From IMG/VR virus record IMGVR_UViG_3300032167_000006: 64,000 nucleotides of DNA, one strand, 5' to 3'. Numbering within the stretch: the stretch's first letter is position 1; each line of letters opens with the position of its first letter. This document shows, piece by piece, positions 1,991 to 59,595 of this stretch. A program made the position numbers and the translations under genes. This DNA is from a virus. Its lineage: Duplodnaviria; Caudoviricetes. The notes under the pieces are model-generated. The model saw nothing but the letters and a program-made list of their open reading frames with translations. It was not told where the DNA came from and ran no database searches.

Positions 1991-2304
1991 TCAATCGCCT
2001 CCATAGGATTTATTACATCATCCCAAGTTGAATCGCCTACTTCTAAAGCATGAGGTGAATAATCAAACATAATTTCTCTTAATCGTGTTAATGGAATAAA
2101 TCCTTTCCACGTTGGCATCATTTTAAATACTGAATTGCAATTACAGCACATTCCTTCTGCATTATAATCCAATTCAGAATGATCTATAGTTTCTCCATCT
2201 GCATTTGTAAGAAACTTTCTAAGTTGACTTTCAAGTACGACAAATTGTTTATGCCCACATTTAGGACAAGCTCCAGAAGGAACAATATTAACCATCTCAA
2301 TCAT
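1987..2304 (-). CDS. Zn-ribbon protein
   Basis: CPKC...CCNC; GGAGG RBS; N-terminal EMVNIV motif. Confidence 0.75.
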   Translation of the reverse strand: MIEMVNIVPSGACPKCGHKQFVVLESQLRKFLTNADGETIDHSELDYNAEGMCCNCNSVFKMMPTWKGFIPLTRLREIMFDYSPHALEVGDSTWDDVINPMEAIE

Positions 2305-2332
2305 AAAAAATTACCTCCATATCAGAATTCAT

Positions 2333-2358
2333 AGGTAGAGAGTTTTAGTACTCTCTAC
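2333..2358. terminator. Intrinsic terminator-like hairpin
   Basis: GGTAGAGAG/CTCTCTACC inverted repeat between genes. Confidence 0.6.
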
Positions 2359-2378
2359 CGTAATATGAATTTTGTAAT

Positions 2379-2642
2379 TTATTTTTTCTGAGGTGGTGTG
2401 TATTTAATTTTTCGAATATCGCCCTTGATAAGTACAATAGCATCAGGTTTAGAGTCATTAGGATCTCTAACAATAGATGTGTATCTTTTTGGAACACCTC
2501 TAACTGATACGGTTCCAAATGAAGTATTAGGACCGTGTACTTTTATCTGTAAAGCTTCTTCTTCGGCTGAATATACGAAATATCTAAGATACATAGATGA
2601 TGCATTATTCATAGCACCAGCACCTCCGTTTTTATTAATCAA
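2379..2642 (-). CDS. Hypothetical protein
   Basis: 87-aa ORF; probable start at MNNASS after GGAGG. Confidence 0.65.
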   Translation of the reverse strand: MINKNGGAGAMNNASSMYLRYFVYSAEEEALQIKVHGPNTSFGTVSVRGVPKRYTSIVRDPNDSKPDAIVLIKGDIRKIKYTPPQKK

Positions 2643-4446
2643 ATCTTTCGTAATACATTAAACCATCACCAAAGATATCAAATCCGTCGATAAATTCTTC
2701 TTGTGAATAAGTAAATAACGAATAATCAACTAATTTCTTAGCGACTTGTATACACTCATTGAGCACCTCATTATTTTTCTGTTCATCTTTAATTGATCCT
2801 ACAATTCTACACATTTCTTTTTTAGCAATCATCTTATTATAAGTATCAATTACTTTAGCAAGATCCGATTCCCATGTTGATGGTTCAGTATATTCTGAGA
2901 AATGATTATCATATAATGAAACAAGTGGACAAACTGTACCACTGATTCCAGGATCAGAGTTAGAAGAACTATCTATATCAACTCTGCCAAGATGAGATGG
3001 ATGAATAGATCTATATGCATTTGATATTGCATTAGCTTTTTCACCAATACCAGATACACCTTTATATGTATATTTAAGTGCAGTAATAGCATCGAGATCA
3101 TTAACACAATCTTTATAGTTAACTAACTGACATTTGCTTATAGAATTAATCAGATACATAGGAGATATTTGTAAAGCTTTCTTAATCGTAGTAAGATCTG
3201 CTTTATCACCTTTATCAGAAATTCTATAAATACCAGTTGCTAACTTGGAAGCATAATAAGAAGCTATATATTCAGCCCATCTTATTTTCTTTGTAGATAT
3301 GTCAAGATTATCTTTCTGACGTAATGAGTTAAACTCATACATCATCCAACGAAGCACTCTATACACATCTGACTTATCTTCCATATCAAGTTTAAGATCA
3401 TTCATTGTTATATCATCATAAATAAAATCAAGTGAATTTAAGATATTATAACCTTTTTCATGTATACTATCAAAATCTTTTGTAGTGAATTCCATACCAA
3501 GAGATTTAACCCATTCACTATTAGTAAATACATCTGAGAAAGATATATTCTTTGTTACATTATAAACTGTATATAATGTATATACAAATGACTGAACCAC
3601 TTGAACAGAATCATACATTAATTTATTTACGACAATATATGCATCTTTTACAGGGAAAATATAATTATCATCAGAATTGAATTCTTTAAATGATTTGGTA
3701 AAATAAACACCTTTTATACCAAGAAATTTCATAGATTCATAAAATCCCATTTTTGCTAATATATATTTCATTAGCAATAAAGATTTCTTAAACATATTTC
3801 CTACAAAATATGTACATGGAATTGCTCGTCCATTTAAATCTTTAAGAGTATTCATATATCTATAAACTCTTATAGGCATAAAGATAGTTTTAAAAGTTAT
3901 AGATTGTTTCTTAGCATTCTTTGCAGCACTATTATTATAAGTACTAGCATCTACAATCTGATACATTGCAGAATACATATTTCCATTTAGTCTAAAATAG
4001 AAACCATCAACAATCCTAGGTATAGCAATATATACTGTGATATTATCGCTTACTAAACCATTCTTCTTTTCAAAAATTTGTATAAAATAATCAACTTTTA
4101 TAATTTTAAGGTCTGAATCTTTTAAATTAATAAAATTATATTGATTATCTTTTGCTTTATAAACACTTTTTCCATCTTCAGATTTTTTACCTTTGCTAAG
4201 AATATTATCTTCATATTCCCAAAGGATATGATTTACATCATCATAGTCATCAATAACCTGAAAATTAGTAATTTTAATTGTAAAGACAGAATCACGTTCG
4301 CATGAATATACTACAGCTTTAATAGCTTCAATAAGATCATCATCTGATCTTTGAAATAATTCTTTAGTGAATTTAGGTCTATGAGTATTATTAAAATTAT
4401 AAATAAATTCTCTTTGATTCATAATTAGCACCCCATAATATTGCAA
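2635..4446 (-). CDS. Phage multisubunit RNAP beta, N-terminal part (probably non-virion RNAP)
   Basis: YRSIHPSHLGRVD..SS.SDPG matches beta motif RDVHPTHYGR; YFRLNG; likely start 4422. Confidence 0.85.
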   Translation of the reverse strand: MQYYGVLIMNQREFIYNFNNTHRPKFTKELFQRSDDDLIEAIKAVVYSCERDSVFTIKITNFQVIDDYDDVNHILWEYEDNILSKGKKSEDGKSVYKAKDNQYNFINLKDSDLKIIKVDYFIQIFEKKNGLVSDNITVYIAIPRIVDGFYFRLNGNMYSAMYQIVDASTYNNSAAKNAKKQSITFKTIFMPIRVYRYMNTLKDLNGRAIPCTYFVGNMFKKSLLLMKYILAKMGFYESMKFLGIKGVYFTKSFKEFNSDDNYIFPVKDAYIVVNKLMYDSVQVVQSFVYTLYTVYNVTKNISFSDVFTNSEWVKSLGMEFTTKDFDSIHEKGYNILNSLDFIYDDITMNDLKLDMEDKSDVYRVLRWMMYEFNSLRQKDNLDISTKKIRWAEYIASYYASKLATGIYRISDKGDKADLTTIKKALQISPMYLINSISKCQLVNYKDCVNDLDAITALKYTYKGVSGIGEKANAISNAYRSIHPSHLGRVDIDSSSNSDPGISGTVCPLVSLYDNHFSEYTEPSTWESDLAKVIDTYNKMIAKKEMCRIVGSIKDEQKNNEVLNECIQVAKKLVDYSLFTYSQEEFIDGFDIFGDGLMYYERFD

Positions 4447-4808: not shown

Positions 4809-4809
4809 A

Positions 4810-5436
4810 TTAAACTCTCCCTTCTGTAAGATCTATTACTATGGTTTGATGCATAGGATTAGGAGTATTTTCATCTCTATCTCTAATAGTAAGATCGACA
4901 GAAATATCAAGAGCATTACTAATACTAATCAATTTACCAAGTGTTATAGAATTACCTTTAAGTAATCTCATATCATTCTGAAATTGATCAAATCTATCTT
5001 CGTATTGTTTTGTATCTATACGCTTAAGATTAATAGCAGTCTTTAAAGCTCTCATTTCAGGAGTATCTTTTTCGCCTATTTTAAGACATAATACATTATC
5101 ACTAGTAGTCATTATTTCATCTTGTATATCGCGAATTATTTGCTGTTTTTCAAATACCTCTCCTATAGATTTAGGATTAGTAAAATCAATAATTTTATCC
5201 GGATCATATTCTGCCGTGTTATCCGGTTTTTCAACTATAGCTACCATAGCTCCATTTTGGTAATAAATACCAGGACCAGTTTCTCCAACTCTACTTTTTA
5301 TAGGTAAGATACATTCTCCTGGTCTTTCAATTGCTGTAAATTTTGGAGAATATAAATCTGGATGATCAGTATAATCATCCATATCAGTTACACTGTATAG
5401 TCTTCCATCAATTTCTGCTTTTTTCATCTCAGACAC
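4810..5436 (-). CDS. Hypothetical protein, possible C-terminal XRE-like HTH
   Basis: ITLGKLISISNALDISV resembles the end of an XRE HTH. Confidence 0.6.
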   Translation of the reverse strand: MSEMKKAEIDGRLYSVTDMDDYTDHPDLYSPKFTAIERPGECILPIKSRVGETGPGIYYQNGAMVAIVEKPDNTAEYDPDKIIDFTNPKSIGEVFEKQQIIRDIQDEIMTTSDNVLCLKIGEKDTPEMRALKTAINLKRIDTKQYEDRFDQFQNDMRLLKGNSITLGKLISISNALDISVDLTIRDRDENTPNPMHQTIVIDLTEGRV

Positions 5437-6283: not shown

Positions 6284-8575
6284 CTATTGTAAAACTATAT
6301 TATTTGCTTCTAAGAATCCAGATTTATTAAATACCGGAATTCCATACTTTTTAGCTTTCTGCACTTTTGATGAAATAGAATTGATATCATCTGCTATAAG
6401 TGCAAATGTATCTTTAGTTACAGAATATTTATCACTTGCATCAAATCCATTATTAATTAAAAGCTGGATGAATGCAGAATCTCTAAATCCTGTAATTGCT
6501 ATCCTTGGACCAGTAGATAATCCTTTAGAATTAATAATATGGAAATTATCTATACAATATTGTACATCTTTATCATATAATAAAAATCCTTCCACAATAG
6601 CATCCACTGTCTTTGGACCAATGCCATTTATATTAATTAATTTTTCATGATCAGTAAAGATTTGATGCATTAATTCTTGTAATGTGTAATTTCTAAAAAT
6701 TAATTTCCAAGTCTCATCTGCCATTCCATCAAAGCTGAAAGCTGACATAAGCTTATAATCCATTATTTCAGAATTTTTAAGTTGCTCTATATAAGATAGT
6801 AGATTTGAACTATTTATAGGTCCTAAAAATTGTACTTGCTCATAAGTTAAATTCATTAATTTACTAAATGAAGTTAATTTAAGAGCTCTAACTGTTTCTT
6901 CTGAGAAATCTTTAAAACCAAATCTATCAATCATATCAACCATTCTCATTATAGAACGTTCATAACATTTTACATTTGGGCATTTAGCAGATTTTCCAGA
7001 ATCAGATATAATTAATTCAGTACCACAACATGGACAATGAGTGATAAATTCAACAGGTTTTTCTTTTTGATCTCTATTATGCTGTGTGTCAGGTTTCGTA
7101 ATATAGGTGATTACGTCATTTACATAATCAATATCTATCTCGTCACCAACAGCAAGATTCAATTCTTTAAATCTTTTATATGAATGAATAGTCTGTTTGG
7201 TGTGAATACCTCCTATGAATTCACAGGCTTTAAAATGACACATCGGTATAATATCACCAGATTTACCAATAGAATATGAATATCCTAAGAATAAAGTTCT
7301 GGCGTTGCGAGGATTAAATTTAATTGCCATTGAATATTTATTAACTGAATTAATTCTACCAAGCCTATTAATTTTATCTTTATCGATAAATGATACTACA
7401 ACTCCATCTATCATATAAGGTAAAATCTTTCTAATAGTCTCTGCAGATTCTACAAACTGTTTGACCTGAAATAATATAGATTGATAGTCTCCTTTAAGAA
7501 TACAAAATCTATTATATTCTCCAGAATGATAATATTTATTTAAGAAATTAAGTTCGGGAATTCTATCCATCTCCAGAGATGTAGCTATTGGTATTAATGT
7601 AATATAATCTATGTAATTGTAAGCATCACTTGCACCACATAAACCAATTATTGCATTTCTTCCATTCTTATAACTCTTACCTCTGGCTTCTGATAAACGC
7701 TGAAGGTTATAATAAGTTATAACAGCCTCAAATTTCATGCCAAATGTAATATCTGTTGGTACATCTTTAGCATTATGAAATTTATATCCGCCAAATATTG
7801 GAGTTAAATCGGTTGCAATATTATCTCCAGTATCTCCACGAGATAGTGCGCTTATAATTGTATCTCCACATACTTCAGCCTCAACTGAAATACCATCATA
7901 TTTTAATTCAGCTACCATTTCAAATTCTTCATTTGGATATATTATTCCTTGATCCAAACACTTATGAATAAAATCCCTTTCAAATATCTGAACTGATGGT
8001 TTATCATATACGTTAGCTATAACAGCATCATTGTTTAAAACAAATTTACATTTATCTAACGTACCAACCAATTCTGGATATTTATGTTCTGTATTAATAA
8101 GTCTTTTAGTAATAGGTTCTCTAACTAAAAAGCACATATTAACAGGTCTCATCTCACGCAATGGAGTATGCTGTTTCCAAATATCTCTAGTAAATAATTT
8201 ATCATCCATATTATCTACAGCTACACACATTACTTTTTCAGTTTCAACTTCATTTTGAGGCTGCTCCTTGAATATTATAGGAGCAGCACCAACTTGATAG
8301 TTAGGATCATAGTTATAATACTTTACAGCCAGCTGATCATATATACCATCATCTAATGGAAGTAAAGTATTGCTTGTATTATTGTATGCAATATTACTAA
8401 TTCTTAATATTAAATTAGCCATATTAATCATACCTTCATTCCAATCTTGGCAATTAATTAAATTAACTGCCATGTTGCTAAGTTCTGCACAAGTTTTAGT
8501 ATCATTCAGTAGTTCTGGATTTCCTTTTTCCAACTCCGACAACATCTTTTCTAACTTGACCATATTCCTCACCAA
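6284..8575 (-). CDS. ligA: NAD-dependent DNA ligase
   Basis: ELKYDG adenylation motif, LSRGD, DGVV, C4 Zn finger, HhH, BRCT; likely start 8563. Confidence 0.95.
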   Translation of the reverse strand: MVRNMVKLEKMLSELEKGNPELLNDTKTCAELSNMAVNLINCQDWNEGMINMANLILRISNIAYNNTSNTLLPLDDGIYDQLAVKYYNYDPNYQVGAAPIIFKEQPQNEVETEKVMCVAVDNMDDKLFTRDIWKQHTPLREMRPVNMCFLVREPITKRLINTEHKYPELVGTLDKCKFVLNNDAVIANVYDKPSVQIFERDFIHKCLDQGIIYPNEEFEMVAELKYDGISVEAEVCGDTIISALSRGDTGDNIATDLTPIFGGYKFHNAKDVPTDITFGMKFEAVITYYNLQRLSEARGKSYKNGRNAIIGLCGASDAYNYIDYITLIPIATSLEMDRIPELNFLNKYYHSGEYNRFCILKGDYQSILFQVKQFVESAETIRKILPYMIDGVVVSFIDKDKINRLGRINSVNKYSMAIKFNPRNARTLFLGYSYSIGKSGDIIPMCHFKACEFIGGIHTKQTIHSYKRFKELNLAVGDEIDIDYVNDVITYITKPDTQHNRDQKEKPVEFITHCPCCGTELIISDSGKSAKCPNVKCYERSIMRMVDMIDRFGFKDFSEETVRALKLTSFSKLMNLTYEQVQFLGPINSSNLLSYIEQLKNSEIMDYKLMSAFSFDGMADETWKLIFRNYTLQELMHQIFTDHEKLININGIGPKTVDAIVEGFLLYDKDVQYCIDNFHIINSKGLSTGPRIAITGFRDSAFIQLLINNGFDASDKYSVTKDTFALIADDINSISSKVQKAKKYGIPVFNKSGFLEANNIVLQ

Positions 8576-10760
8576 CTTTCTTACACATTACTTTACCAGC
8601 CATCATTTTTCCATTACCACGTTTATAATCATCGAGAGCCGCATTGTATTGCATTTGTAATTCATCAAACCTACCTAAAACATCACGTATATTAGTCTTA
8701 GGTTTATGAAGTCTAGGTGGTACAATTTTAGCCATGACATTAAGAACCATATCTTTTCTTTGTTTTGGTATCCTTTTAAATGTCAATCTAAGACCCATAG
8801 TTTCCATCAATGCATTAATTATTTCAGCATTTCTATTTTTAGAATTCTGATCTAATTTAATATCAATATTATATGGATCACCAACTAAAAGTTGCTCAAC
8901 AAGTCTTCTACCTTGAGGTGATGACGAATAAAGCATAAGATTCATTACAACATATTGAACTCCCATATGAAGCAAGTCACCAGATTCCATAAAACCAAAC
9001 ATGATAGGTGTTTTGGTATACTTAGCTTCATACATCTTGTTTGCTTTAGAACGTGTATTAAGATTCTTTAAGTTTGTTGCAGAAAGTGAAGTAACTGAGA
9101 ATTTTTCTTCTGCGTACTGTTTTAATCTATAATGATAGATTTTACTTACAACCATAGGTCTTAATGCTTTAACCATTCTAATATTACCATTAGAATCTTC
9201 CATAGGCATCATAATTTTATATGGTTTTATAAACTCAAATTCATCATATATTTTTTCTATAGTATCTATATTAATAGATGTAGTAAATGGTTGAGTTGTT
9301 AAAATAATAGCATCATCTTCTAAAATACTATTAATTATATTTCTACATTCAAATTCATCTTCTGGATCTATATAATAAAGCATTTCATCAGCCTGCTCTT
9401 TATCAACCATCGAGATAAATTTATATAACATTTTAACTTGTTCACCATATGTCATATGTCCTATCCTAAAATAGTCTAAAAGACGCATTCCGATAAATGA
9501 TAAAGATTGCTCATGAAGCTGTCCGATATTTTCACGGTTGATACAAGTAGACTGATTTTTAATAACCTCTACTCTTTTACCATTTTCAAGCATAGGCATT
9601 AACTCATCATCAAGTATCTGAGATACAACACCTTTACCACCGTATCTATCACACATTTTATCGCCAGGTTCCATAGGAAGTTTCTGAATAACTGTAACTT
9701 CCATAATAACATGGTTAAATACTTTTTCTTTATAGAATTGCTTACCAGAAATAATATCTCTACATCTACCATAAAATTTCTTTAAGTTATATGATAAATT
9801 AGAAGTCATAGCTAATGGTCCAACAATGTCATTAACTTCTTTACAAAATCTAAGACTTTGATTATAATAATAAAATAACTGTGCATTATAATGTGAATCT
9901 CCAAGAGCTTCAGGATTATTACAATATATATTTATATCTGCTACAGTGCCTTCCATAAGGATATTTCTATCCGAAAGCATTATATCTCTAAGATTTTGCT
10001 GACTTAAAGAATACAGTATATTTTCATTTTCCATACGACGTATAGAACAAAATATACCATTTTTAACTTCTTCTCCGATATCAGGAAATGTTTTATATAC
10101 ATTTTCATCTCCATAAAGATTAAGAAGAATATCGTTATCATTTATTGTTATAGGCGTATTTTTAACCAAAGGTATTGCTAATTTTTCAGCACATGATTTT
10201 GATAATATTATAGAGTCTTCCATATTTTGAGCACATGATACATACAACGTGGTTAAATTAATACCATTCATTTTATTACCATACTCATCAAAACCAATAG
10301 ATGTTTTAATAGGTGCACCTTTATTTATCTTATCGCCTACTCTTAAATCATCTAATTTATTATTATTCCATAAGAATCCATATGATTCAGTATTGTAATT
10401 ATATGCAACTCTTTCAATAACATCATACACACCATTTATATTATCATATATTAATAAATAATAATGATGATCTTTACCTTCAATTGTTTGAAACTTATGC
10501 ACAACGGTATAGTCTGATGGAGATGCTATATATGAAGTTGAATTTCTGCCGAATTCATTTTCATATCCAGTTTGAATAATAGGCACTTCTCCATTATAAA
10601 GCACTGTAAGATGCTCAGTATGTACTGAAGTCATTAGTGCTCTAGAACCAGAGTTGGCAGGTCTAAATGGTTGCATTGAAGTTCGTCCAAGCATATAATT
10701 ATAATTAGGTAAATAATTAGTACTTTCTATGATTTGTTCATTAATATTAATATTTGCCAT
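8502..10760 (-). CDS. Phage multisubunit RNAP beta, C-terminal part (probably non-virion RNAP)
   Basis: SRALM, NMEDSI, GDKMCDRYGGKGVVS, RENIGQ, YRLKQ, FGFME. Confidence 0.92.
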   Translation of the reverse strand: MANININEQIIESTNYLPNYNYMLGRTSMQPFRPANSGSRALMTSVHTEHLTVLYNGEVPIIQTGYENEFGRNSTSYIASPSDYTVVHKFQTIEGKDHHYYLLIYDNINGVYDVIERVAYNYNTESYGFLWNNNKLDDLRVGDKINKGAPIKTSIGFDEYGNKMNGINLTTLYVSCAQNMEDSIILSKSCAEKLAIPLVKNTPITINDNDILLNLYGDENVYKTFPDIGEEVKNGIFCSIRRMENENILYSLSQQNLRDIMLSDRNILMEGTVADINIYCNNPEALGDSHYNAQLFYYYNQSLRFCKEVNDIVGPLAMTSNLSYNLKKFYGRCRDIISGKQFYKEKVFNHVIMEVTVIQKLPMEPGDKMCDRYGGKGVVSQILDDELMPMLENGKRVEVIKNQSTCINRENIGQLHEQSLSFIGMRLLDYFRIGHMTYGEQVKMLYKFISMVDKEQADEMLYYIDPEDEFECRNIINSILEDDAIILTTQPFTTSINIDTIEKIYDEFEFIKPYKIMMPMEDSNGNIRMVKALRPMVVSKIYHYRLKQYAEEKFSVTSLSATNLKNLNTRSKANKMYEAKYTKTPIMFGFMESGDLLHMGVQYVVMNLMLYSSSPQGRRLVEQLLVGDPYNIDIKLDQNSKNRNAEIINALMETMGLRLTFKRIPKQRKDMVLNVMAKIVPPRLHKPKTNIRDVLGRFDELQMQYNAALDDYKRGNGKMMAGKVMCKKVGEEYGQVRKDVVGVGKRKSRTTE

Positions 10761-10835: not shown

Positions 10836-11048
10836 CTATTTTTTAACAATTTCACACATTACCTTTTTACGATCATTACATTTACGATTGATGTACTCTT
10901 CTACACTCTTTTTAGGAATTTTCCATACAGTTCCAACTTTAAATGCATCAATTTCCTGATCATTTAATAACTGATATGCCGTGTTCTTTCCTATTCCAAG
11001 AATCTCACAGAGCCCATCAATTTCCATAACTAAACGCTCTTTGGGCAT
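10836..11048 (-). CDS. Excisionase-like HTH DNA-binding protein
   Basis: LCEILGIGKNTAYQLL..IDAFKVG..WKIPK; ends KKVMCEIVKK. Confidence 0.85.
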   Translation of the reverse strand: MPKERLVMEIDGLCEILGIGKNTAYQLLNDQEIDAFKVGTVWKIPKKSVEEYINRKCNDRKKVMCEIVKK

Positions 11049-12821: not shown

Positions 12822-13772
12822 TTACGGAACTATGATATTTTCATATACTCTAAGTCTATCAATCATATCATTTATTTTTTGATAATCATCAGATAATCTT
12901 CTCATACTAAATCTAACCGGCTTTCCATAATGGACTAGCTTATACGATTCTGTATAATTCAATAATACATGTCTAATATTATCACTAGTAAACTCATTAA
13001 GTATATCTAATACAGCAAGAGATAATGTTGAATCTACCTCTTGTATATCATCAGTTATCCAATGAGTTGACTCATCCGCATCATCATAATCATCTAAAAC
13101 ATCCATCATTATATGAGGGAATATTTTAACATAATTTCTCTGATCTCTATCAAGCTCATATAAAATCTTTAAGATTTGTACTATGGTTTCTTGAGTCATG
13201 ATTGATTTATGCTGACCAATTATAATAAAATTAACTCTCTTAACACATACCTTAGGATTAAGATTAGACCATCTTGCTATAAGAAGTAAGTTAGCTACAT
13301 TATTATTTAATCCAAGTCCAAGTAATCTTGGAAGATATGGTGCATTAATAATATTAGCAAGCATATACATTCTGCTTACAACAGCAGGATTTTTATTCAC
13401 ATGGCTAAATGTGATATAATCATAACAAATATTATTTATCTTGGCAATATTATCTCTATCAAAATAGTTACCTTGATGAATATAACGTTGTACTACATCA
13501 ATAAATGCATCTAAGAATCTTACATTTGTAAAACAGTTAATATAATCTGCTGATTCTTTAGAACCAAAGAATATATTATTTAATATAGTCCTAAATGAGT
13601 TTTGAACAAACATACGAAGTTCAGTATCATTCATATTATTCATATCATATATTGATCCTAAGAGGATTGATTTATTGAACGATGGTGAATTTGCAGGTAC
13701 TATTTTTACCATCTCCACTAAATGTTTTTCATCATAGTTTTTCTTATCTTCCCAGTATTTTTCAAATGCCAT
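12822..13772 (-). CDS. Hypothetical protein downstream of tubulin
   Basis: 316-aa ORF, GGGAGG RBS, N-terminal EMVKIV motif. Confidence 0.8.
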   Translation of the reverse strand: MAFEKYWEDKKNYDEKHLVEMVKIVPANSPSFNKSILLGSIYDMNNMNDTELRMFVQNSFRTILNNIFFGSKESADYINCFTNVRFLDAFIDVVQRYIHQGNYFDRDNIAKINNICYDYITFSHVNKNPAVVSRMYMLANIINAPYLPRLLGLGLNNNVANLLLIARWSNLNPKVCVKRVNFIIIGQHKSIMTQETIVQILKILYELDRDQRNYVKIFPHIMMDVLDDYDDADESTHWITDDIQEVDSTLSLAVLDILNEFTSDNIRHVLLNYTESYKLVHYGKPVRFSMRRLSDDYQKINDMIDRLRVYENIIVP

Positions 13773-13810: not shown

Positions 13811-14989
13811 TTAATATTCATCCTCTTCTGTTACAACATTATTCACTGCTCTTTTTGCTGGTGTACCGCCCTGTTCTTTAGTATCAGTATTACCAAAGTT
13901 AGCTAATACATCATCAGGATTTCTCATTTGAGGAATATTGGTTTCTTCAATATCATCATCGAAATCCATATCTCCAAATATATCAGAAAATCCTTTAACT
14001 TCACTGTTAAGTTTTTCTTTAAGAGTATCATATTTTCTAACCATACTCTTAATACCATCTTCAGGATAAAGAAGACCTGCTACAACTATATCCATATATT
14101 CTTTAGAATCATCATATTGAATATGACGGAATATTTCAAGAGGTTCTCCTGTATACCTTTTAATAACTTCAAATCTATTATCGATAGCATCTTGAGTTTT
14201 CTGTGTTGCGTTAATAATAACAGCAAGACGTTTACAACCCTTATTACTATATTCCATACAACTCATTGATTCAAATGAATCAATAATTGCCTGATTTGTA
14301 AGTTCTATATTTTTAGCTCCCTCAAGATCTACATGACGAATATCCATATAACCAGATGTAGTTATAATCTTATAATGATCTGTATCATCTATATTCTGAT
14401 TTGACGGAATCATTTTAGAACCAATAAGAATTTCTAATTGTTCTACAAATTCTTTATTGGCTGCAATTTCTGCTTTAGAATAATTCTTAGTAAAATCTAA
14501 GAATTTAGAATTATCTATAGTATGAAGAATAACTCCATCGGGAAGATCTTTAAAGAACTTCAAGCTGTTATTAATTCCTCTAACTTCATCTTGAAATCCT
14601 ATAAATGCAAATACATGCACAGGTATATTTAATGCTGTAAAGTATTTTGCAATTACAGGGGTTGCTCCACAACCAGTACCGCCTTCAACAGATGTTACAA
14701 GAACAACTGCTTTAGTATTAGGATTAATAAGAGCACTAAAATCAATATCTCTATCTCTTATAGCCTGGAACATAGCTTTCTGACCTTTAACAGGTTCTTT
14801 ACCACATCCACCAAGCATAGAGCTAAATTTAATAATCTTTTCAGGCTCTTTCTTATATTTCTCAGGAATATCTTTAACTGTTGTATTTACGAGTTTTACA
14901 TTATCCTCGTTTATAATTTTTGCTTCTAATGCTGCAATAGCTGCTTTATTACCTGCAGCTCCTACACCAAATAATGCTAAATCCATCAT
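13811..14989 (-). CDS. Tubulin/FtsZ-family GTPase (PhuZ/TubZ-like)
   Basis: GVGAAGN, GGCGKEP, signature EGGTGCG, IDNS, T7-like NIDDTD; acidic tail. Confidence 0.92.
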   Translation of the reverse strand: MMDLALFGVGAAGNKAAIAALEAKIINEDNVKLVNTTVKDIPEKYKKEPEKIIKFSSMLGGCGKEPVKGQKAMFQAIRDRDIDFSALINPNTKAVVLVTSVEGGTGCGATPVIAKYFTALNIPVHVFAFIGFQDEVRGINNSLKFFKDLPDGVILHTIDNSKFLDFTKNYSKAEIAANKEFVEQLEILIGSKMIPSNQNIDDTDHYKIITTSGYMDIRHVDLEGAKNIELTNQAIIDSFESMSCMEYSNKGCKRLAVIINATQKTQDAIDNRFEVIKRYTGEPLEIFRHIQYDDSKEYMDIVVAGLLYPEDGIKSMVRKYDTLKEKLNSEVKGFSDIFGDMDFDDDIEETNIPQMRNPDDVLANFGNTDTKEQGGTPAKRAVNNVVTEEDEY

Positions 14990-15433: not shown

Positions 15434-15670
15434 TTATTTATTACATACAGGTTTTAATGCGCCATGTAAAGGATTTATTGTACAATGATATATTTTATTT
15501 TGGGGATTTGGGTATACACTATAATCTAAATTATTTAAAAACTCATCATAATCTTTCATATGTGGTTCTTTACAAGATTTAACAGTATTATGAATTTCAT
15601 ATAATGGATCATTATATGTAGCCTTAGGGCTATTAAATACATCTGCAATTGAATTATACATTGGTTTCAT
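15434..15670 (-). CDS. Hypothetical protein
   Basis: 78-aa ORF coupled to upstream gene. Confidence 0.6.
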   Translation of the reverse strand: MKPMYNSIADVFNSPKATYNDPLYEIHNTVKSCKEPHMKDYDEFLNNLDYSVYPNPQNKIYHCTINPLHGALKPVCNK

Positions 15671-16571
15671 CCTTTCTAACTATTATACACATTTCTTTCT
15701 TAGGCATGCTATAATACGGAATATAATTATACATATATGGATTATACATTCTTGCAGCAATAGGCTGATAACCAACTACACTATCATAATAGTATGAAGC
15801 AGCATTTAAATCCAAATATACATTAATTCCAGTTTGTTTGGTAAATAGAGTTTCTTTAATATTTATTTCGCCATTTCTATATTTAGTTGTAATAATTAAG
15901 TCTTTAGGATATGTATTTAAATTTATAGGCAAATTAATATATTTACAAATATCACTTTGTTTAAATGGTTTAAGTTTAACATACCCTGGAGCATATATTC
16001 TTTGAGATGGGTGGATATGTTTTTGTATATCATATAAATCTACTATATAATGCTTATAGTAGATTTCATCTTTAGCTTCAGTATATCCTTCAATATGTCT
16101 AAGATCAGCAAGAAAGTATTCAAAACATTTCCATCTATCACATACTGTTGTACCAAGGGCACCAATATATGGGAAAGCTTGAGATTCTGGATGATAGCAC
16201 TTATCTATTATATTTCTCCAGATCTTATGTTCTGATACAAAATGGTATGGATCTGCAAATCCTAAATATGAAGGATCGTAGTTTAAATCTGGTATATATT
16301 TAGCTAAAGCCCCAGATATTAATCTATCTATTGGAACTATAGAATTAGTTGCTAATAAATTTTCTTCTTTATCAAAGATATCTACCTTTACTAAAGTAAT
16401 TTTATATTCTCCATATCCATCCTCATAGTTTCTTTGATTATCTGCAATTTCTTTTACTAAGGTAAAATACTTTGATTTATATGCTCTAAAGTAATCTCCT
16501 ACATGCAGAATTGTGCTTTCATCAAATTTTAATACTTGTTGTTTCATTTTTGTGTATCTCTCCTTAGACAT
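15654..16571 (-). CDS. Degenerate HNH-endonuclease-related protein
   Basis: WRNIIDKCY..YIGALGTTVCDRWKCFEYFLAD matches the WxxMxxRC..YGGRGIxVCxRW phage HNH-associated domain. Confidence 0.6.
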   Translation of the reverse strand: MSKERYTKMKQQVLKFDESTILHVGDYFRAYKSKYFTLVKEIADNQRNYEDGYGEYKITLVKVDIFDKEENLLATNSIVPIDRLISGALAKYIPDLNYDPSYLGFADPYHFVSEHKIWRNIIDKCYHPESQAFPYIGALGTTVCDRWKCFEYFLADLRHIEGYTEAKDEIYYKHYIVDLYDIQKHIHPSQRIYAPGYVKLKPFKQSDICKYINLPINLNTYPKDLIITTKYRNGEINIKETLFTKQTGINVYLDLNAASYYYDSVVGYQPIAARMYNPYMYNYIPYYSMPKKEMCIIVRKDETNV

Positions 16572-20331: not shown

Positions 20332-21016
20332 TAATATTTCCTTCCTTTTCCACTTTCTTAACCATAACTAAATGAGCTAAATATACTGGATCATCTCCAG
20401 GTAGAAAATCTACTTCTTCTTCATGCATGTCTTCATAATAATCAACCTCATTAACAACATAGTCTTCAAATTGATCTTTTGTCATACTGGTATTTGGATA
20501 ATCTGCTTTGACTTCTTCATATGAATTATAATTATCTAAATATATAAGATTATAATCAAGACACTCATCTTTAACTAAAATACCAGAACAAATTTTATAA
20601 TGTTCTTGAAAAGCCATTCCAGGTTCTTGCGACCACAATTCTATTTCTAATTGTAATCTTTTAGATTCTTTTAAAAGAGTGCTACCATAATGCTCGCCTG
20701 GATGATCATGTTCAAACTGCATGAAGTATGACCAAGGACCACCCATCATACATGAACTAACAGACCATGCACATTCAAAATCAATAGATACACATTTATA
20801 TATTCCACTATTCCAATGCTCATCAAATTTATATGCTGAGAATACCCTAAAGAAATGTGGTATATGCGTAAAGTTTTTAGGATCTACACACCAACTATAA
20901 TCATAATTATTTTTATCTTTATAATATGAATAGTTAGCATCTAATATTTTTAATAATTCATCAACGCAATCGGCACGACCTCTAACGTTCATGAAACCAG
21001 TACATATATTTGGCAT
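20321..21016 (-). CDS. YubB/DUF1281-like ferredoxin-fold protein
   Basis: MPNxC start, FECAWS, EPGMAF. Confidence 0.6.
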   Translation of the reverse strand: MPNICTGFMNVRGRADCVDELLKILDANYSYYKDKNNYDYSWCVDPKNFTHIPHFFRVFSAYKFDEHWNSGIYKCVSIDFECAWSVSSCMMGGPWSYFMQFEHDHPGEHYGSTLLKESKRLQLEIELWSQEPGMAFQEHYKICSGILVKDECLDYNLIYLDNYNSYEEVKADYPNTSMTKDQFEDYVVNEVDYYEDMHEEEVDFLPGDDPVYLAHLVMVKKVEKEGNINEV

Positions 21017-38432: not shown

Positions 38433-39227
38433 CTAAAATACCTCCCAATTAAGATTTTTATATGCATTTTCTATATTTATAATATTATAATATGAATTAA
38501 CAAGAGAGAGGAATGTATATTCACAGTCGTTAATATATTTTAAATGATCTGGGTTAGTGAAGTTTAAAACAAATTCATTATAAGAAACACTATTTTTTGA
38601 TAATTGTAATATAATACATCCATCTATTTCTATACCAAGCTCATTACGAAGCATATAACGATATGCGGCTAATTGTAAAATATATTTAAAAGTAATATGA
38701 TTACTAGTCTTATAATCTACTAAATATATTTTACCATTAATTTCATATAATCCATCTAATGTGCCGCCAAAATATTTGCATGCTAAAGATTTTTCATGGA
38801 AAATAACTCTTACGTTTGCTGCATTATTTATATCTGTAAACCATTTTAAAAATGATTGATATGCATTATAAGATTGATTTGGCATAGATGTAGCATCTGC
38901 TTCATAATTATCATTACTTAAAAAGTTATCTATGTTTTCATGAGCATGATGTCCTACGTTAGCTGCAGCATCTAAAGTTTTAGCATATGATTGATGCTTA
39001 AATCCTAAAGAATTAGCCCAATACATAAGTGAGTCTGAATGTATGCATTTTGAAAGTATTTTTGTAACTCTGGGTACAATTATACCATTATGAATATAGT
39101 CAGATTCTACATTTATAGGTGGCATTTTTTCTAATATTTTTACCATTTCATTCATTTGAACTATTATCCCCATAGCGTTTTTCAAATTCTTGAATTGCTT
39201 CTTTTGCAATTTCATCAATTGTGCCAT
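38433..39227 (-). CDS. PD-(D/E)XK nuclease (Cas4/RecB-like exonuclease)
   Basis: PRVTKIL, G..AH, GGTLD..LVDYKTS, QLAAY; probable start MNEMVKIL. Confidence 0.85.
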   Translation of the reverse strand: MAQLMKLQKKQFKNLKNAMGIIVQMNEMVKILEKMPPINVESDYIHNGIIVPRVTKILSKCIHSDSLMYWANSLGFKHQSYAKTLDAAANVGHHAHENIDNFLSNDNYEADATSMPNQSYNAYQSFLKWFTDINNAANVRVIFHEKSLACKYFGGTLDGLYEINGKIYLVDYKTSNHITFKYILQLAAYRYMLRNELGIEIDGCIILQLSKNSVSYNEFVLNFTNPDHLKYINDCEYTFLSLVNSYYNIINIENAYKNLNWEVF

Positions 39228-54343: not shown

Positions 54344-55105
54344 ATGAAAAAGAATAAGAAATTAAGCAATGCTGAATTAGATCAACTTATTGAAAATGTA
54401 GTAGACAAACTTGAAAAACAAGATGTTATTTATAAAGATGAAAATGATGTTATTCATCTTGTAGATAAAGATGGTATAAAATATACCAAGATTGATACTG
54501 GCGTAAAACAGGCAAATTCTGTTGGAGAATTTATTAAAATTTTAGAACAGCTTCCGCAAGATGCTGAGTTTGAATTGAATGGCATAGCTAAAGTAAAAAC
54601 ATCTGAAATGGGTTATCCTGAGGGAGATCTAACAATCACACCTATGTATAATGAAGATCTTCCAGAAATTCCTTTTGAAGATTGTGAAGAATGCTGTGGC
54701 GAATGCAAATGTGATGAAGCTGGTGATATAGATCAGTGTGAGAAAGAGTTTGCTGAATATTCAATGAAAAAATATCTCTATGGAGTAAATGAAACTGCGC
54801 CTGAGATTATTCATGGTATGAGACATAGTCCTGTAGATCAAATTATTTATCAAACAAAAGTATGTCATCCTAATGCACTTCAGCTTGATTATGAAGCAAC
54901 AATGCTTGGCAATAATCAGTGTGCTATAATTGATGAAATGAGACATCATAACGCATATGTTGCCGAATGTATTGCTGAGATGACTCGTAGACAAGTATCA
55001 GCACTTCTTGAATATAATACTCAGGCAATGGCTAACTTTGCTGTGGCTACAAAGAAAGATATGTGTGTTATTGTAGATAAAGATACTGACGATTTTGAGG
55101 ATTAA
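54344..55105 (+). CDS. Hypothetical protein with acidic Cys cluster
   Basis: DCEECCGECKCDE; C-terminal KKDMCVIV. Confidence 0.78.
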   Translation: MKKNKKLSNAELDQLIENVVDKLEKQDVIYKDENDVIHLVDKDGIKYTKIDTGVKQANSVGEFIKILEQLPQDAEFELNGIAKVKTSEMGYPEGDLTITPMYNEDLPEIPFEDCEECCGECKCDEAGDIDQCEKEFAEYSMKKYLYGVNETAPEIIHGMRHSPVDQIIYQTKVCHPNALQLDYEATMLGNNQCAIIDEMRHHNAYVAECIAEMTRRQVSALLEYNTQAMANFAVATKKDMCVIVDKDTDDFED

Positions 55106-55457: not shown

Positions 55458-56135
55458 GTGAAAATATTTATGAGTAACGTATTAGAAATTTGTACAGATG
55501 CAAGTATACGCACATTTCCTAATGGTAGAACATTTGGATGTGCTGGAGCTTTATGCATCACTACAATGGAACAAGATTATTTAGTATCGCAAGATACAAC
55601 CAATAATAGATCTGAGCTCTTAGGAGTATATTTAGGTCTTAAATTGGGAAAACGTATTATGGATGAAAATCCTAATTACAAAAGTATGATTATTTATTCA
55701 GACAGTCAGTTTGCAATATTTGGATTGACAAAATGGATGGCTGGATGGATGAAATCAAAAGATACTAACGGAATAATTTATGGTTCTAATGGTAAACCTG
55801 TAAAGAACCAAGAGTTATTTATGTGTATCTTATCATTTATTACATCTAATCAAATTAAAGTTACATTTAGACATTGTTCTGGCCACGTTAGATACACCAG
55901 TACTAAGATGCTCAGACAAGCAAACGATGTTTATTATAGGTCTAATGGAGAATATCTACGTCCAGAAGATATTTTTAAATTAGCATATTATAATGACATT
56001 GTAGATACTACAACTAGAGAATATTTACAAACTATCAATCCTGATATATATCCAAAAATGGATTATTCAAATAATTATCAGATGATGGCAAAATATGTAG
56101 TTCCAAATAATTATACGAACTTTATAGGAGATTAA
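55458..56135 (+). CDS. rnhA: Ribonuclease HI
   Basis: TDAS, TNNRSEL, YSDSQ, W..GW, VKNQEL, GH, ND.VD. Confidence 0.9.
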   Translation: MKIFMSNVLEICTDASIRTFPNGRTFGCAGALCITTMEQDYLVSQDTTNNRSELLGVYLGLKLGKRIMDENPNYKSMIIYSDSQFAIFGLTKWMAGWMKSKDTNGIIYGSNGKPVKNQELFMCILSFITSNQIKVTFRHCSGHVRYTSTKMLRQANDVYYRSNGEYLRPEDIFKLAYYNDIVDTTTREYLQTINPDIYPKMDYSNNYQMMAKYVVPNNYTNFIGD

Positions 56136-57164
56136 ATGATGTATGAGAATATGCAAGGGATGATTCAAAATGGTGGATTTGGAACTTCTGGTCCAATGAA
56201 CTTTCAAGGATTTAACCCCTATCAAAACAATATGATACCATTTGGAAACTATAATCAACCATCGGTACAACAGCCGTATCAGTATTATAATAATCCATAT
56301 GGAAATCAACAACCACAAAATAATGGACTGGTATTTCAACCAGTCGGAGGTTATCAACAACCAAAAAATAATTACAATTATTATAATCCTTATGGAAATA
56401 CATTTACTCCAACACCATACGGTTATAATTCATATGGTAATGCTTATAGCTATAATTATTATAATGGATATAGACCATATGCATCACCTGTTGCAATGCA
56501 ACAATATCAAAATCAACAAATAGAATTGTTTAAAATGAAATATCGTTTAGCAAATCATTATGTTGGAAATGAGATTAATGAAGATTATCTTGATAAATTA
56601 TGTAACCCTAATAATCAAATATATCAGAAATCTCAAGAACAAATAGCTGCAGAAGAAGAGCATAGATTTATGCAATATGTTTCTAATGTAGCATGTGGAA
56701 TAATACAAGTTCCAAAATCTAATATACAACGTGAAGCAGATATGTTGAATCTAATGTCTTATAATTTACATCAAGCATTAGATAATCATTCATTATGTGA
56801 ATTTTTAGAAGATGATCTTTGGAAGTTACAAAGAGAATTTTGGATTAGGGATAATCTTAAATTAAATGGTAATAGAGATCTTTCAACCACATATAATAGT
56901 AGTGATTATAATGAACTATTAAGGCTACACAATAGCTCTACAAGTCCATATGTAAGCGATTTACTTAATAATTCAAGATATGATAATAATCTTGACGATA
57001 TAGAAATCGGTATGAAAATGGCATTTGATAGAGAACGAAGAAGGAAAGCAATATTAGAAGGTAAAGTTCCTGATTTCATTTCGTCGGACGAAACACAAAA
57101 ACGTCGACATGAATGGACGCAGCAACTAATGAATCAAATTTATAGAAAAGGAGGAGGCGTATAA
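56136..57164 (+). CDS. Protein with N/Y/Q/G/P prion-like N-terminus
   Basis: About 130 nearly charge-free aa with repeated NPYG; charged helical C-terminus. Confidence 0.8.
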   Translation: MMYENMQGMIQNGGFGTSGPMNFQGFNPYQNNMIPFGNYNQPSVQQPYQYYNNPYGNQQPQNNGLVFQPVGGYQQPKNNYNYYNPYGNTFTPTPYGYNSYGNAYSYNYYNGYRPYASPVAMQQYQNQQIELFKMKYRLANHYVGNEINEDYLDKLCNPNNQIYQKSQEQIAAEEEHRFMQYVSNVACGIIQVPKSNIQREADMLNLMSYNLHQALDNHSLCEFLEDDLWKLQREFWIRDNLKLNGNRDLSTTYNSSDYNELLRLHNSSTSPYVSDLLNNSRYDNNLDDIEIGMKMAFDRERRRKAILEGKVPDFISSDETQKRRHEWTQQLMNQIYRKGGGV

Positions 57165-58924
57165 TGTCTAGGGTATCTTTAATTGAACAACTCTATGCTC
57201 CTAAGAAGAAAAGTGCCCTGGAATTTGATTATGATAAATTATGGGCACCACCCATAAGATTCTTTTTATCGCAGCAGGATATTAATGAATTATATAAAAT
57301 TGCTACTTCATTAAAATATAATGATAATATTGAAAAGAAGTACGAACTCATAGATGCAGTCATGAGGCCTCGTGGATTTAAACGTGGTAATTGCGGCACT
57401 AATAGAGTAGTTTATAATTTCTTAGAAGACACATCATTTTGTATGAAGATTGCACTTGATCGTGTAGGTATTAAAGATTCTCCAAGAGAATTTAAAAATC
57501 AAGAATTCTTTAAACCGTTTTGTTGCAAGATATTTGAAGTGGATCCAACTGGAGTTATAGCATGTGTAGAGCGTGTTAATCCAATATCCTCATTAGAGGA
57601 ATTTATATCTGTTGCAGATGATATATTTAATATGATGGTAACTAAAATCATTGGAAAATATGTTGTAGATGATTTAGGTACTGAAAAGTTTATGAATTAC
57701 GGAACTCGTTATAATGCTAATGGTACAGCATTTGGTCCCGTAGTTTTAGATTATCCGTATGCTTATGAATTAGACGGAGCTAAACTCCATTGTGCAAAGC
57801 CTGTTCTGATTGGAGATAAAGAATTTGCTTGTAATGGAGAAATTGATTATGATGCTGGCTTAAACAATCTAGTATGCAGTAAATGTGGACGAACTTATAG
57901 CGCTAGAGAGCTAGCAAGAGATGATTCAAATGTACTAAAATTCTATTCAGATGAAGATCGTGGTAGACTTAGGGCAAGAATCGTGAGAGAAGATGGAACG
58001 ATTATAAAAGATAGTGGTCGTTCATCAAAAACATACATTACTAAAGAAGAATATGAGGAGGGCATTAGAATGTTCGAATTAAAAGACTTAGGTCCACGTC
58101 CGGTAGAAAAAACAATTAAAAATAAATATGTCCCGATGAAGAAACTTAGGGAACAATATCATTCAGAACTTCAACTTAAAGCTTATGAGGAAATGCAAAA
58201 AAGAAATGCAGAACCTTTTAATCCTGCAATGAAATCTGAATTTAGTCCTAGACCAGCAAAAAGAGCTGGTAAAAATGAATCTAAAGATAATACAATCATT
58301 GCAGATCCTATAGTAGCAACTGAAGAAAGAATTCAAAATGTTACAATAGCAGCAAGAGCAGAAGATGCTATCAATGAACAGGAATCTGAAATTGTAAAAG
58401 AAACAACTTTTGAAGAGGCTTTAGCTGAAGCTTTAGAAGCAGAACCTGATACGGTCGATGAAGATATGCCTTTAGAAGAAGCTATAAATAAAGCTTTAGA
58501 GGAAGCTGAAGACGATGATTCTGAAGATGAAGAGGGTACTGAGTATTATGAAGAGAATGATACTGTTGAAAATTCTGATGAGGAATCAGAAGAAGAGGAA
58601 GATGAAGAAACTGTTTCAGAAGATGAAGAATTTGAATCAAATAATTCAGATGAACAGAAAGGATTTGATGAAGAAATGGAAGCAGAAGTATTTCCTGAAA
58701 TGAATAATGATAATATTATAGTTGGAGTAGACTTATCTAATGATGAGGAAGATTATTCTAATTATATTCCGCCTGAAGAAGAAGATGAAGAAGACTTTGA
58801 GGATGATGAAGACGATGAGTATTCTGAACTGTATGCATTTGATCGTAAAGCACAAAAACGCGACAATAAAAAACAGCAGAATAAATCCAAAAAGTTTAAT
58901 AGTGGAGATATGAGCGATTATTAA
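57164..58924 (+). CDS. Atypical protein kinase-like protein with Zn ribbon and acidic tail
   Basis: GNCGTNRVVY loop, MKIA Lys, REF Glu, DDLG..MNYG catalytic loop, LDY (DFG-like), CSKC, long D/E tail. Confidence 0.7.
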   Translation: MSRVSLIEQLYAPKKKSALEFDYDKLWAPPIRFFLSQQDINELYKIATSLKYNDNIEKKYELIDAVMRPRGFKRGNCGTNRVVYNFLEDTSFCMKIALDRVGIKDSPREFKNQEFFKPFCCKIFEVDPTGVIACVERVNPISSLEEFISVADDIFNMMVTKIIGKYVVDDLGTEKFMNYGTRYNANGTAFGPVVLDYPYAYELDGAKLHCAKPVLIGDKEFACNGEIDYDAGLNNLVCSKCGRTYSARELARDDSNVLKFYSDEDRGRLRARIVREDGTIIKDSGRSSKTYITKEEYEEGIRMFELKDLGPRPVEKTIKNKYVPMKKLREQYHSELQLKAYEEMQKRNAEPFNPAMKSEFSPRPAKRAGKNESKDNTIIADPIVATEERIQNVTIAARAEDAINEQESEIVKETTFEEALAEALEAEPDTVDEDMPLEEAINKALEEAEDDDSEDEEGTEYYEENDTVENSDEESEEEEDEETVSEDEEFESNNSDEQKGFDEEMEAEVFPEMNNDNIIVGVDLSNDEEDYSNYIPPEEEDEEDFEDDEDDEYSELYAFDRKAQKRDNKKQQNKSKKFNSGDMSDY

Positions 58925-58947
58925 TTATTTATTGGAGGTGAATAGAT

Positions 58948-59595
58948 ATGTTTAATAATCATGCAATGTCTGTAGTTACAGACTTACGAATGTTAGGGCC
59001 TGAAATAAATAATAAAGATTTTATAGCTATTGCAGCGATTACAACAAATGATTATCCTAAATTGCCTAATATATATAATGCAAGCATATTAATTCCACCT
59101 ACTGAAATTCTTATGCGTTGGGCAGATGGAGATCCGTATGTACTTCAAGCAAACTATCCTAATTATCTTAGAACTCAGACTCCTGATGATATGATAGTAG
59201 CATTAATTGCTCTTCTTACTCAAAAGAATGTGATATTATACATACCTGGAGATGAGTTTAATATATTTGGTCAAATGTTATTAGATCATATATATTTCAA
59301 TTATGGTATTATATGTAATACCCCAACAACGCAATTTGCAATGGATCAAGCAAAGATACCATTTTTACTTTCTAGATTCTATATGATTGATGCTATGAAT
59401 CCAGAAGATTATCTTTCAGCATATCCAGCAAATGCATTATTACCAGAGTTTGTTATAAATAAGCTTGCTGAAGAAATGAAACCGTTCCAACAACCTGTAT
59501 CATTCCAACAGTATGCAGAATATTTTAACAAACTAAATGCTGCCAAAGGAACAACCATTGCCCATCCAGAGATGGTTAAGGTGGTGGAAAAATGA
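58948..59595 (+). CDS. Hypothetical protein, possible degenerate DUF488-like fold
   Basis: LIPP.EIL..Y..YL..NVILY pattern; ends EMVKVVEK. Confidence 0.7.
   Translation: MFNNHAMSVVTDLRMLGPEINNKDFIAIAAITTNDYPKLPNIYNASILIPPTEILMRWADGDPYVLQANYPNYLRTQTPDDMIVALIALLTQKNVILYIPGDEFNIFGQMLLDHIYFNYGIICNTPTTQFAMDQAKIPFLLSRFYMIDAMNPEDYLSAYPANALLPEFVINKLAEEMKPFQQPVSFQQYAEYFNKLNAAKGTTIAHPEMVKVVEK

Follow-up and report, generated by a model that had tools for sequence, protein, structure and literature searches.

We analysed a 64,000-nucleotide stretch of the genome of a tailed virus (Caudoviricetes; IMG/VR record IMGVR_UViG_3300032167_000006), hereafter the window, in which a five-residue peptide, referred to below as the tag, recurs in proteins that are unrelated to each other. 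The window corresponds to bases 112618-176617 (reverse strand) of the virus record, which is 258,973 bp long, has a GC content of 29.6% and is 96% complete according to CheckV. Megablast and tblastn searches against phage records returned only distant relatives at about 30% identity; this is also the level of identity to the proteins of Bacillus phage AR9/PBS1, Listeria phage LPJP1 and the Staphylococcus jumbo phages, a group of phages with two multisubunit RNA polymerases (RNAPs). Using the AR9 annotation and Pfam/PHROGs for protein assignment, we found that the window encodes the beta-N, beta-C and beta'-N polypeptides of the non-virion RNAP (nvRNAP), two pieces of the virion RNAP, NAD-dependent DNA ligase, DnaB, gyrase A/B, UvsX, SbcD, a RecD-like helicase, RNase H, a Cas4-like nuclease, an HNH protein, NrdD/NrdG and an FtsZ/tubulin-like protein. 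About 18 copies of the tag are located in 15 proteins of the window, and more are present in the remaining genome. The copies in the window are given below with their open reading frames (ORFs).

2281..2295, minus strand: MVNIV at residue 4 of a 105-residue Zn-ribbon protein (ORF 1987-2304); orthologues carry their own lineage version
2800..2814, minus strand: KKE-MCRIV in the tail of nvRNAP beta-N, residue 545 of 603 (ORF 2635-4446, homologue of AR9 g105)
5233..5247, minus strand: MVAIV, internal, at residue 64 of a 208-residue protein (ORF 4810-5436)
8123..8137, minus strand: VN-MCFLV in the N-terminal region (about residue 147) of NAD-dependent DNA ligase (ORF 6284-8575)
8216..8230, minus strand: EKV-MCVAV at residue 116 of the same ligase
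8574..8603, minus strand: MAGKV and MCKKV at residues 720 and 725 of 752, in the tail of nvRNAP beta-C (ORF 8502-10760, homologue of AR9 g089)
8721..8735, minus strand: NV-MAKIV-P at residue 676, also in the beta-C tail
10845..10859, minus strand: KKV-MCEIV-KK at the C-terminus of a 70-residue HTH_17 protein (ORF 10836-11048)
13698..13712, minus strand: VE-MVKIV-P at residue 21 of a 316-residue protein (ORF 12822-13772), just downstream of the tubulin-like gene
15678..15692, minus strand: KKE-MCIIV at residue 294 of 305 of an HNH endonuclease-like protein (ORF 15654-16571)
20351..20365, minus strand: LV-MVKKV-EKE at residue 218 of 231 of a function-unassigned protein (ORF 20321-21016)
30110..30124, minus strand: LKE-MVKIV-D at residue 7 of a 141-residue protein (ORF 29717-30142)
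33205..33219, minus strand: KKV-MCTIV-PR at the C-terminus of a DnaB-like helicase (ORF 33196-34917)
39132..39146, minus strand: NE-MVKIL-EK at residue 28 of a Cas4/PD-(D/E)XK-type nuclease (ORF 38433-39227)
55061..55075, plus strand: KKD-MCVIV-DKD at residue 240 of 253 of a function-unassigned protein (ORF 54344-55105)
56085..56102, plus strand: MAKYVV, a weak variant, in the C-terminal region of RNase H (ORF 55458-56135)
59572..59586, plus strand: PE-MVKVV-EK at the C-terminus of a 215-residue protein (ORF 58948-59595)

An earlier note on this DNA had listed most of these peptides. At all 13 sites that it named, the containing ORF encodes the stated peptide in its own frame, and every listed peptide was confirmed, but the list missed the internal copy of the 208-residue protein. 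The two ligase copies, described there as part of an insertion, are present but lie upstream of the adenylation domain, which starts at residue 211; the RNase H peptide is likewise present, but only as a weak six-residue variant.

A protein-level motif on non-virion DNA- and RNA-handling proteins

Motif counts in the 251 ORFs of the complete 258,973-bp genome were compared with those in within-protein shuffles. The pattern MC.IV occurs 11 times in the genome versus 0.22 times in the shuffles, and similar differences were obtained for M[CV].IV (17 versus 0.8), [EVD]M[CVA].[IVK]V (21 versus 0.65) and K[EVD]MC.[IVKA]V (8 versus 0). In an unbiased enumeration of 4-5-mers, MC.IV ranked near the top, being present in 10 proteins with 0.15 expected. 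On the frequency check that the earlier note had proposed, the observed counts are thus far above the controls. A logo constructed from 62 copies in three genomes reads [KR][KR]-[ED]-M-[CV]-x-[IV]-[VI]-[DN]-[KN]. The copies favor protein ends, as 19 of the 26 strong ones lie at most 30 residues from a terminus, where 19% would be expected (binomial p = 3.5e-9).

Synonymous codons differ at every tag position. Val is encoded by GTA (9 times), GTT (9), GTG (5) and GTC (1), Ile by ATT (11) and ATA (7), and Glu by GAA (11) and GAG (4). All good matches in a six-frame search were in the frame of a real ORF, and the search found no good copy in intergenic DNA, on the opposite strand or in a non-coding frame. 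Because the codons vary while the frame is always that of the gene, the tag is a protein motif and not a DNA repeat, as the earlier note had maintained.

The carriers are non-virion proteins that handle DNA or RNA, about 20-25 in the genome or about a tenth of the proteome. The nvRNAP is tagged on beta-N, beta-C (2-3 copies), beta'-C and the N-terminus of the homologue of the AR9 promoter-specificity subunit gp226, that is, on four of its five subunits, with beta'-N being without a tag. The PolB exonuclease subunit (PolB-exo) has 2-3 copies in its tail, and the PolB catalytic subunit has two in an insert. Other carriers are an SF2 helicase, a methyltransferase-like protein, two Zn-ribbon proteins and about eight proteins of unassigned function. 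A genome-wide motif scan detected no tag on any homologue of an AR9 virion protein, on any virion-RNAP subunit, or on NrdD, NrdG, the HAD deoxyribonucleotidase and GroEL, and the split between tagged and untagged proteins drawn in the earlier note holds. Several DNA enzymes that the note does not mention (gyrase A/B, UvsX, SbcCD, primase and a RecD-like helicase) and nvRNAP beta'-N are untagged as well. When proteins were assigned to functional classes by our own classification, 16 of 26 DNA/RNA-acting non-virion proteins were tagged compared to 0 of 34 virion, virion-RNAP and metabolic proteins (Fisher p = 3.6e-8). These counts show both the enrichment by function and that at protein ends for which the earlier note had proposed a test.

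An appended tag that changes in concert between lineages

The genome containing the window (G000) was compared with two closer IMG/VR relatives (G001 and G002), with five more related genomes taken from IMG/VR, and with the cultured relatives AR9, LPJP1 and PALS_2; the tag-bearing set consists of seven genomes. The phages bearing the MCxIV, VIKRV and NPFIH versions of the tag described below have core proteins that are 45-65% identical. BLAST alignments of beta-C, beta-N, beta'-C, PolB-exo and DnaB to their AR9/LPJP1 orthologues stop before the tags, and the tails of the latter are lacking or unrelated. The same tag is absent from AR9, LPJP1 and PALS_2. The copies thus lie outside the conserved folds, in line with what the earlier note had suggested; they are an appended element that is kept while the surrounding linkers diverge.

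The C-termini of DnaB in G000, G001 and G002 (KKVMCTIVPR, KGNMCRIVNA and KKQMCRIVQNKLQIAV, respectively) are fully diverged except for the tag, and the ends of DnaB orthologues read NMCRIVNA, QMCRIVQN.., NVIAIKRVAG, ETMIELV and IINPFIHVA. DnaB of the cultured relatives has an end resembling that of single-stranded DNA-binding protein (SSB), namely DSGIPF in AR9, EDDIPF in LPJP1 and IFDDF in PALS_2, and the tag of the clade occupies the same place; an IPF/DDF-like end was found on no other protein of AR9 or LPJP1. More than 1000 homologues of beta'-C are present in public metagenome data. An end of the type ..GIEM[VC]KIV[DE]K.. was observed in 67 of the best 120 of them (identity of at least 57%), with V and C being swapped between near-identical proteins, and entire subclades carry variants such as KKLVVIKRVDN. 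These alignments point to purifying selection on the tag only, with the linkers around it diverging. Carriers are not fixed either: SbcD has an N-terminal tag (MNFGMNPFIHIDAEP) in G004 (191209-192372, the orthologue of window positions 35434-36582) and none in the other six genomes, and single clients have therefore been recruited or dropped lineage by lineage.

The PolB-exo ORF is cut short in G002 (207813-209345) and G003 (186401-187879), where it ends in NNLNDFD. In G002, the tag-bearing tail is found in a separate 152-residue ORF (209936-210394). An intron or homing-endonuclease interruption is the probable cause in both genomes.

The sequence of the tag depends on the lineage, and the following versions were found.

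G000, G001 and G002: [ED]-M-[CV]-x-[IV]-[VI]
G007: the same M[CV]xIV version, on the basis of nine matches to the MC.IV DNA pattern only
G005: M-[IYM]-x-[LV]-[VL] (DnaB ending in KKETMIELV; gp226 homologue starting with MKMYDLV)
G003: V-[IA]-[IA]-K-R-V (DnaB ending in NVIAIKRVAG; gp226 homologue starting with MIVIKRVKK; beta'-C with ..KKVLAIKRVDN..)
G004: [IV][IV]-N-P-F-[IE]-H-[IVM]-[DE]

A loose version of the G004 pattern, P[FV]x[HR], matched 33 times versus 5.2 times in shuffles, mostly on the same clients, and the sites themselves are kept. The copies in the insert of the PolB catalytic subunit are at residues 376/394 in G004 versus 378/395 in G000, and the NPFIH copies of the G004 ligase are at residues 117/149 versus 116/~147. 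Alignment of the PolB insert on its conserved flank ..DEWG showed homology between the versions at each position ([ED]/N, M/P, [CV]/F, x, [IV]/H, [VI]/I). The beta-N subunit of G004 has RIIRPFIHTD at the place of KKE-MCRIV, and its beta-C tail contains four PFIH/PFIR copies. For the 208-residue protein, the position aligned to MVAIV is occupied by PFYHF in G004, VCSVV in G003 and MADVI in G005; since this peptide varies between the genomes, the tag changes with the lineage and the protein is itself a client. The G002 orthologue of ORF 20321-21016 terminates in KIMCKIVKK. The RNase H orthologues (MCNYVI in G002, VCRYVI in G003, MMIYKI in G005) follow the lineage only in part.

De novo motif discovery by Gibbs sampling/expectation maximization (Gibbs/EM) on orthologous termini gave strong motifs, distinct from one another, of 19.7, 16.7, 16.0, 14.0 and 17.2 bits for G000 to G004, compared to 11-12.6 bits for shuffles. 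G005 yielded a weak motif (12.9 bits), and AR9 and LPJP1 were not above shuffles. The tag is a real, protein-level motif with a preference for protein ends; it is confined to a single functional class, is an appended, portable element, and differs in a coordinated way from lineage to lineage. That it is a selected motif, belongs to a system common to the tag-bearing clade and changes its sequence in step, all three taken together, is in our judgement very probable.

A probable shared docking site, candidate readers and rival explanations

A single peptide that changes together in about 20 unrelated proteins would be hard to explain other than by a single reader that co-evolves with it. The phage-wide docking or addressing code with a common partner that the earlier note had suggested is therefore well supported in so far as the tag is appended, kept and switched in step; a clamp or hub, compartment import and a degron are the options that the note had named for it. 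In the model that we favor, the tag would be a short linear docking motif in the flexible parts (termini, tails or loops) of some 20-25 non-virion proteins that handle DNA or RNA, and all copies would be read by one shared receptor, probably phage-encoded and co-evolving with the tags, such that each lineage of these large uncultured AR9/PBS1 relatives would have a private version at the same sites. The likely outcome would resemble clamp 'toolbelts': one hub, on or near the phage DNA, where the replisome and the non-virion (late) RNAP would meet the ligase, RNase H, repair nucleases, DNA modifiers and small DNA binders. We infer that the observed pattern probably reflects one shared reader that recruits the carriers to a single site, on the phage DNA or close to it.

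Candidates for the reader were proteins that are conserved in all tag-bearing genomes, lack an AR9/LPJP1 homologue and are untagged; the presence/absence lists may have further gaps, as the tubulin gene of G004 had escaped the greedy ORF caller and was recovered by tblastn. The following ORF lies outside the window.

183607-184227 of the genome (L007:13607-14227), plus strand: candidate reader, an unannotated 206-residue ORF that overlaps the end of the PolB-exo gene

This family is present in seven of seven tag-bearing genomes, always directly behind the PolB-exo gene, and jackhmmer detected none in AR9 or LPJP1. The protein is untagged, and its mean identity of 40.6% versus a median of 55% for shared genes indicates faster evolution. 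Public metagenome data contain 516 cluster representatives at E <= 1e-3, all of about 200-215 residues. Pfam searches with 28 and with 58 members gave no consistent match; a profile of 58 sequences had PCNA (1ud9) and DnaN (2awa) as its best matches in the PDB, with E values of only 0.22 and 0.24. This protein is our leading candidate for the reader, although with clearly less than even odds.

A 233-residue early-cluster protein (window positions 28449-29150, minus strand) is another possible reader. In its model, a helix at the N-terminus is followed by a small barrel of six strands, further helices and a long acidic tail; the barrel is Sm/SH3-like with weak Sm/Hfq-like matches, and the protein had no significant match in the PDB. 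It has a DDYYxGxF motif in common with the tail of a PC4-like protein that binds single-stranded DNA (L001:9646-10041, plus strand, outside the window). The acidic tail of the PC4-like protein has a conserved tip, EEYYDPSELLG, in all tag-bearing genomes; its AR9 homologue (g093, 78 residues) is without an acidic tail, and the tail may constitute a second, classical hub-tail system. A complex prediction of the tubulin-like protein, the N-domain of the 233-residue protein and the PC4-like binder with the beta'-C tail scored 0.19, below the mark, a result that speaks neither for nor against binding. Other proteins were rejected as readers: a 574-residue protein that looks baseplate-like, a 161-residue baseplate wedge subunit, two virion proteins (164 and 313 residues), the 208-residue protein, which is itself a tagged client, and a 222-residue protein (L009:10735-11403, plus strand, outside the window). 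The latter is untagged and has no Pfam match, but was modelled with confidence as a 5'(3')-deoxyribonucleotidase of the HAD family (predicted template modelling score, pTM, 0.80); the modelled fold would fit the nucleotide-pool editing expected of a phage with deoxyuridine-containing DNA (dU-DNA).

One further gene of the window is given as context only.

13811..14989, minus strand: untagged FtsZ/tubulin-family GTPase gene (Pfam Tubulin 8.3e-9, above the family cut-off; closest PDB sequences FtsZ)

This gene is present in seven of seven tag-bearing genomes and absent from AR9 and LPJP1. The gene for the 316-residue neighbor (12822-13772, minus strand) is conserved with it and has the same distribution. 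A tblastn search with the FtsZ/tubulin-like protein found no phage homologue, and the protein has a conserved C-terminal tip of its own, K[IV]xNNV..[DE][YF].

Several results weigh against the docking model. Pfam detected no DnaN, gp45 or PCNA (PF00712, PF02916, PF00705) and no clamp loader or AAA protein (PF13177 DNA_pol3_delta2, PF00004) in the genome; AR9/phiKZ-supergroup jumbo phages are said to lack a classical sliding clamp (published survey, PMC7824862). Comparison of the 206-residue family with a gp45 alignment by hhalign gave a probability of 1%, a narrower profile of this family (A6) was without a clamp match, and the search for a reader among clamps, loaders, chimallin and clade-specific untagged proteins identified no binding partner. 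Gyrase A/B, UvsX, primase, SbcCD and the RecD-like helicase are without a tag, and the most distant genome, G006, has a weak version only, which was not above shuffles by Gibbs/EM. Finally, four individually tagged RNAP subunits would exceed what docking of the assembled enzyme needs and would fit an address label equally well or better.

Such a label could be a sorting signal, akin to a nuclear localization signal, that directs proteins to a replication/transcription compartment or a cytoskeleton-organized factory and not to a DNA-bound hub. The individual tagging of four of five nvRNAP subunits and of both PolB subunits, the lack of tags on metabolic and virion proteins, which matches the inside/outside split of the chimallivirus phage nucleus, and the distribution of the FtsZ/tubulin-family gene over the tagged genomes are all in its favor, but the link with tubulin is a single evolutionary event, and gyrase, UvsX, primase and SbcCD would be expected inside a compartment and yet are untagged. 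Moreover, phmmer/jackhmmer searches with phiKZ gp54, which as single-sequence searches have low sensitivity, found no chimallin homologue in G000-G002, AR9 or LPJP1 (best E 0.22), and import in chimalliviruses reportedly depends on surface patches of folded cargo and not on a terminal signal (PMC12908238). We consider a sorting signal rather unlikely. In a further reading, the tag would be a private, fast-evolving addressing code in which a portable label of 5-7 residues suffices to send any protein to the replication/transcription centre, newly acquired mobile-element genes are addressable, and the centre is a compartment, organized by tubulin or bounded in some other way, and not a classical clamp. 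This combination seems fairly improbable to us; if true, a code rewritten in each lineage would isolate co-infecting relatives from each other's machinery.

Binding of the tags to a protein of the host (such as its sliding clamp, SSB, RNA polymerase or a protease adaptor), with versions that track different hosts, is quite unlikely. No phage receptor was found, and in our own comparison the hydrophobic spacing (positions 2, 4 and 5) resembles the bacterial clamp-binding pentapeptide QLxLF, but the pockets of host hubs are conserved across bacteria, which is hard to square with MCxIV, VIKRV and NPFIH at 45-65% core identity, and AR9 and LPJP1 need no tags. Homotypic beta-zipper contacts between tags could in principle drive co-condensation of the DNA/RNA machinery without a receptor. 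The MVKIV/VKIVEK version is beta-prone and resembles known steric-zipper hexapeptides, several clients (beta-C, PolB-exo, the SF2 helicase in G004, ligase) have 2-4 tandem copies, and mutual compatibility would likewise force concerted change; however, NPFIH, with its central proline and its histidine, is a poor zipper former, most clients have a single copy, and the charged flanks resemble those of a classic disordered-region motif that binds a folded domain, making this explanation very unlikely. The tag might also time when early and middle proteins are removed or mature, as a degron or as a signal recognized by a protease or chaperone. Such a role would agree with the terminal position, the early-class carriers and the Glu or Asp that precedes Met in 32 of 61 copies and recalls the x-x-E sites of phage prohead proteases, with the cut after E. 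We regard it as highly unlikely, given that the tag occurs at N-termini, at C-termini and in internal loops without distinction, that cleavage or unfolding at the internal copies in the PolB and ligase inserts would destroy essential enzymes, that recruitment accounts better for the tandem copies and the strict restriction by function, and that GroEL and the prohead protease are also present in AR9, which is tag-free. Many copies are at gene boundaries, and this phage group has split genes, PolB among them, as might be expected of a translated DNA or RNA signal (promoter, terminator, intron/exon boundary or recombination site). This explanation was rejected and has virtually no likelihood left, because the codons vary freely, the copies are in the coding frame and never intergenic, the peptide persists at orthologous sites whose DNA has changed, and in other lineages the corresponding sites of the proteins hold wholly different peptides. 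As a general cause, read-through across introns or the boundaries of split genes was also rejected, since most carriers are intact, N-terminal and internal copies exist, and the change is concerted.

Comparison with known systems

If the docking model is correct, a five-residue tag would wire roughly one in ten proteins of these uncultured jumbo phages, which form a large, widespread clade, to one partner. The system would provide a handle on the organization of replication and its coupling to late transcription in AR9/phiKZ-supergroup phages, a clear natural case of a linear motif and its putative reader changing together across about 20 proteins, a genomic criterion for telling which unassigned ORFs are likely to act on phage DNA, and a ready-made set of orthogonal pairs of peptides and putative receptors. 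Peptides and co-expression suffice to test this hypothesis, and phage culture is unnecessary. Our literature search found no publication that describes the tag system.

The gp45 clamp of T4/RB69 is similar in that its clients carry a short peptide at ends or loops of the polymerase, ligase, RNase H and late-transcription proteins (gp43, gp33 and gp55 in T4/RB69), and that the hub ties replication to late transcription; the client list is very similar. The motif sequence is unrelated, however, no gp45/PCNA/DnaN member or clamp loader is detectable here, helicases, HNH, methylase-like and Cas4-like proteins and four RNAP core subunits are also tagged, and the motif has been replaced wholesale between sister lineages. 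The PCNA-interacting peptide (PIP) box and the beta-clamp motif QL[SD]LF also occur as terminal or internal, sometimes tandem motifs on unrelated DNA enzymes and are bound by one hub pocket. Unlike these motifs, which are conserved across whole domains of life, the tag is private to each lineage and switches in concert, and its consensus matches none of the known clamp-binding types (QxxLxxFF, QL[SD]LF, LDFLF). The tag system would thus work like clamp 'toolbelts', but judged from its sequences is not a demonstrable member of the clamp-motif family, because it has no known consensus, no recognizable clamp or loader and a lineage-private motif.

The C-terminal tip of SSB (DDDIPF) and the acidic tails of T7 gp4/gp2.5 are terminal peptides that mediate replisome contacts as well. 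There the hub has the tail and the clients have the pockets, whereas here about 20 clients have the peptide; furthermore, the tags have basic or mixed flanks, unlike the acidic SSB tail, and no IPF. Chimalliviruses similarly sort the DNA/RNA machinery from metabolic and virion proteins and have two multisubunit RNAPs and a tubulin homologue, but chimallin was not detected here. The capsid-targeting sequence of T4 provides a precedent for a short common terminal peptide that serves as an address label within one phage; it is N-terminal only, is found on virion-packaged proteins and is cut by the prohead protease, whereas the carriers of the tag are non-virion enzymes.

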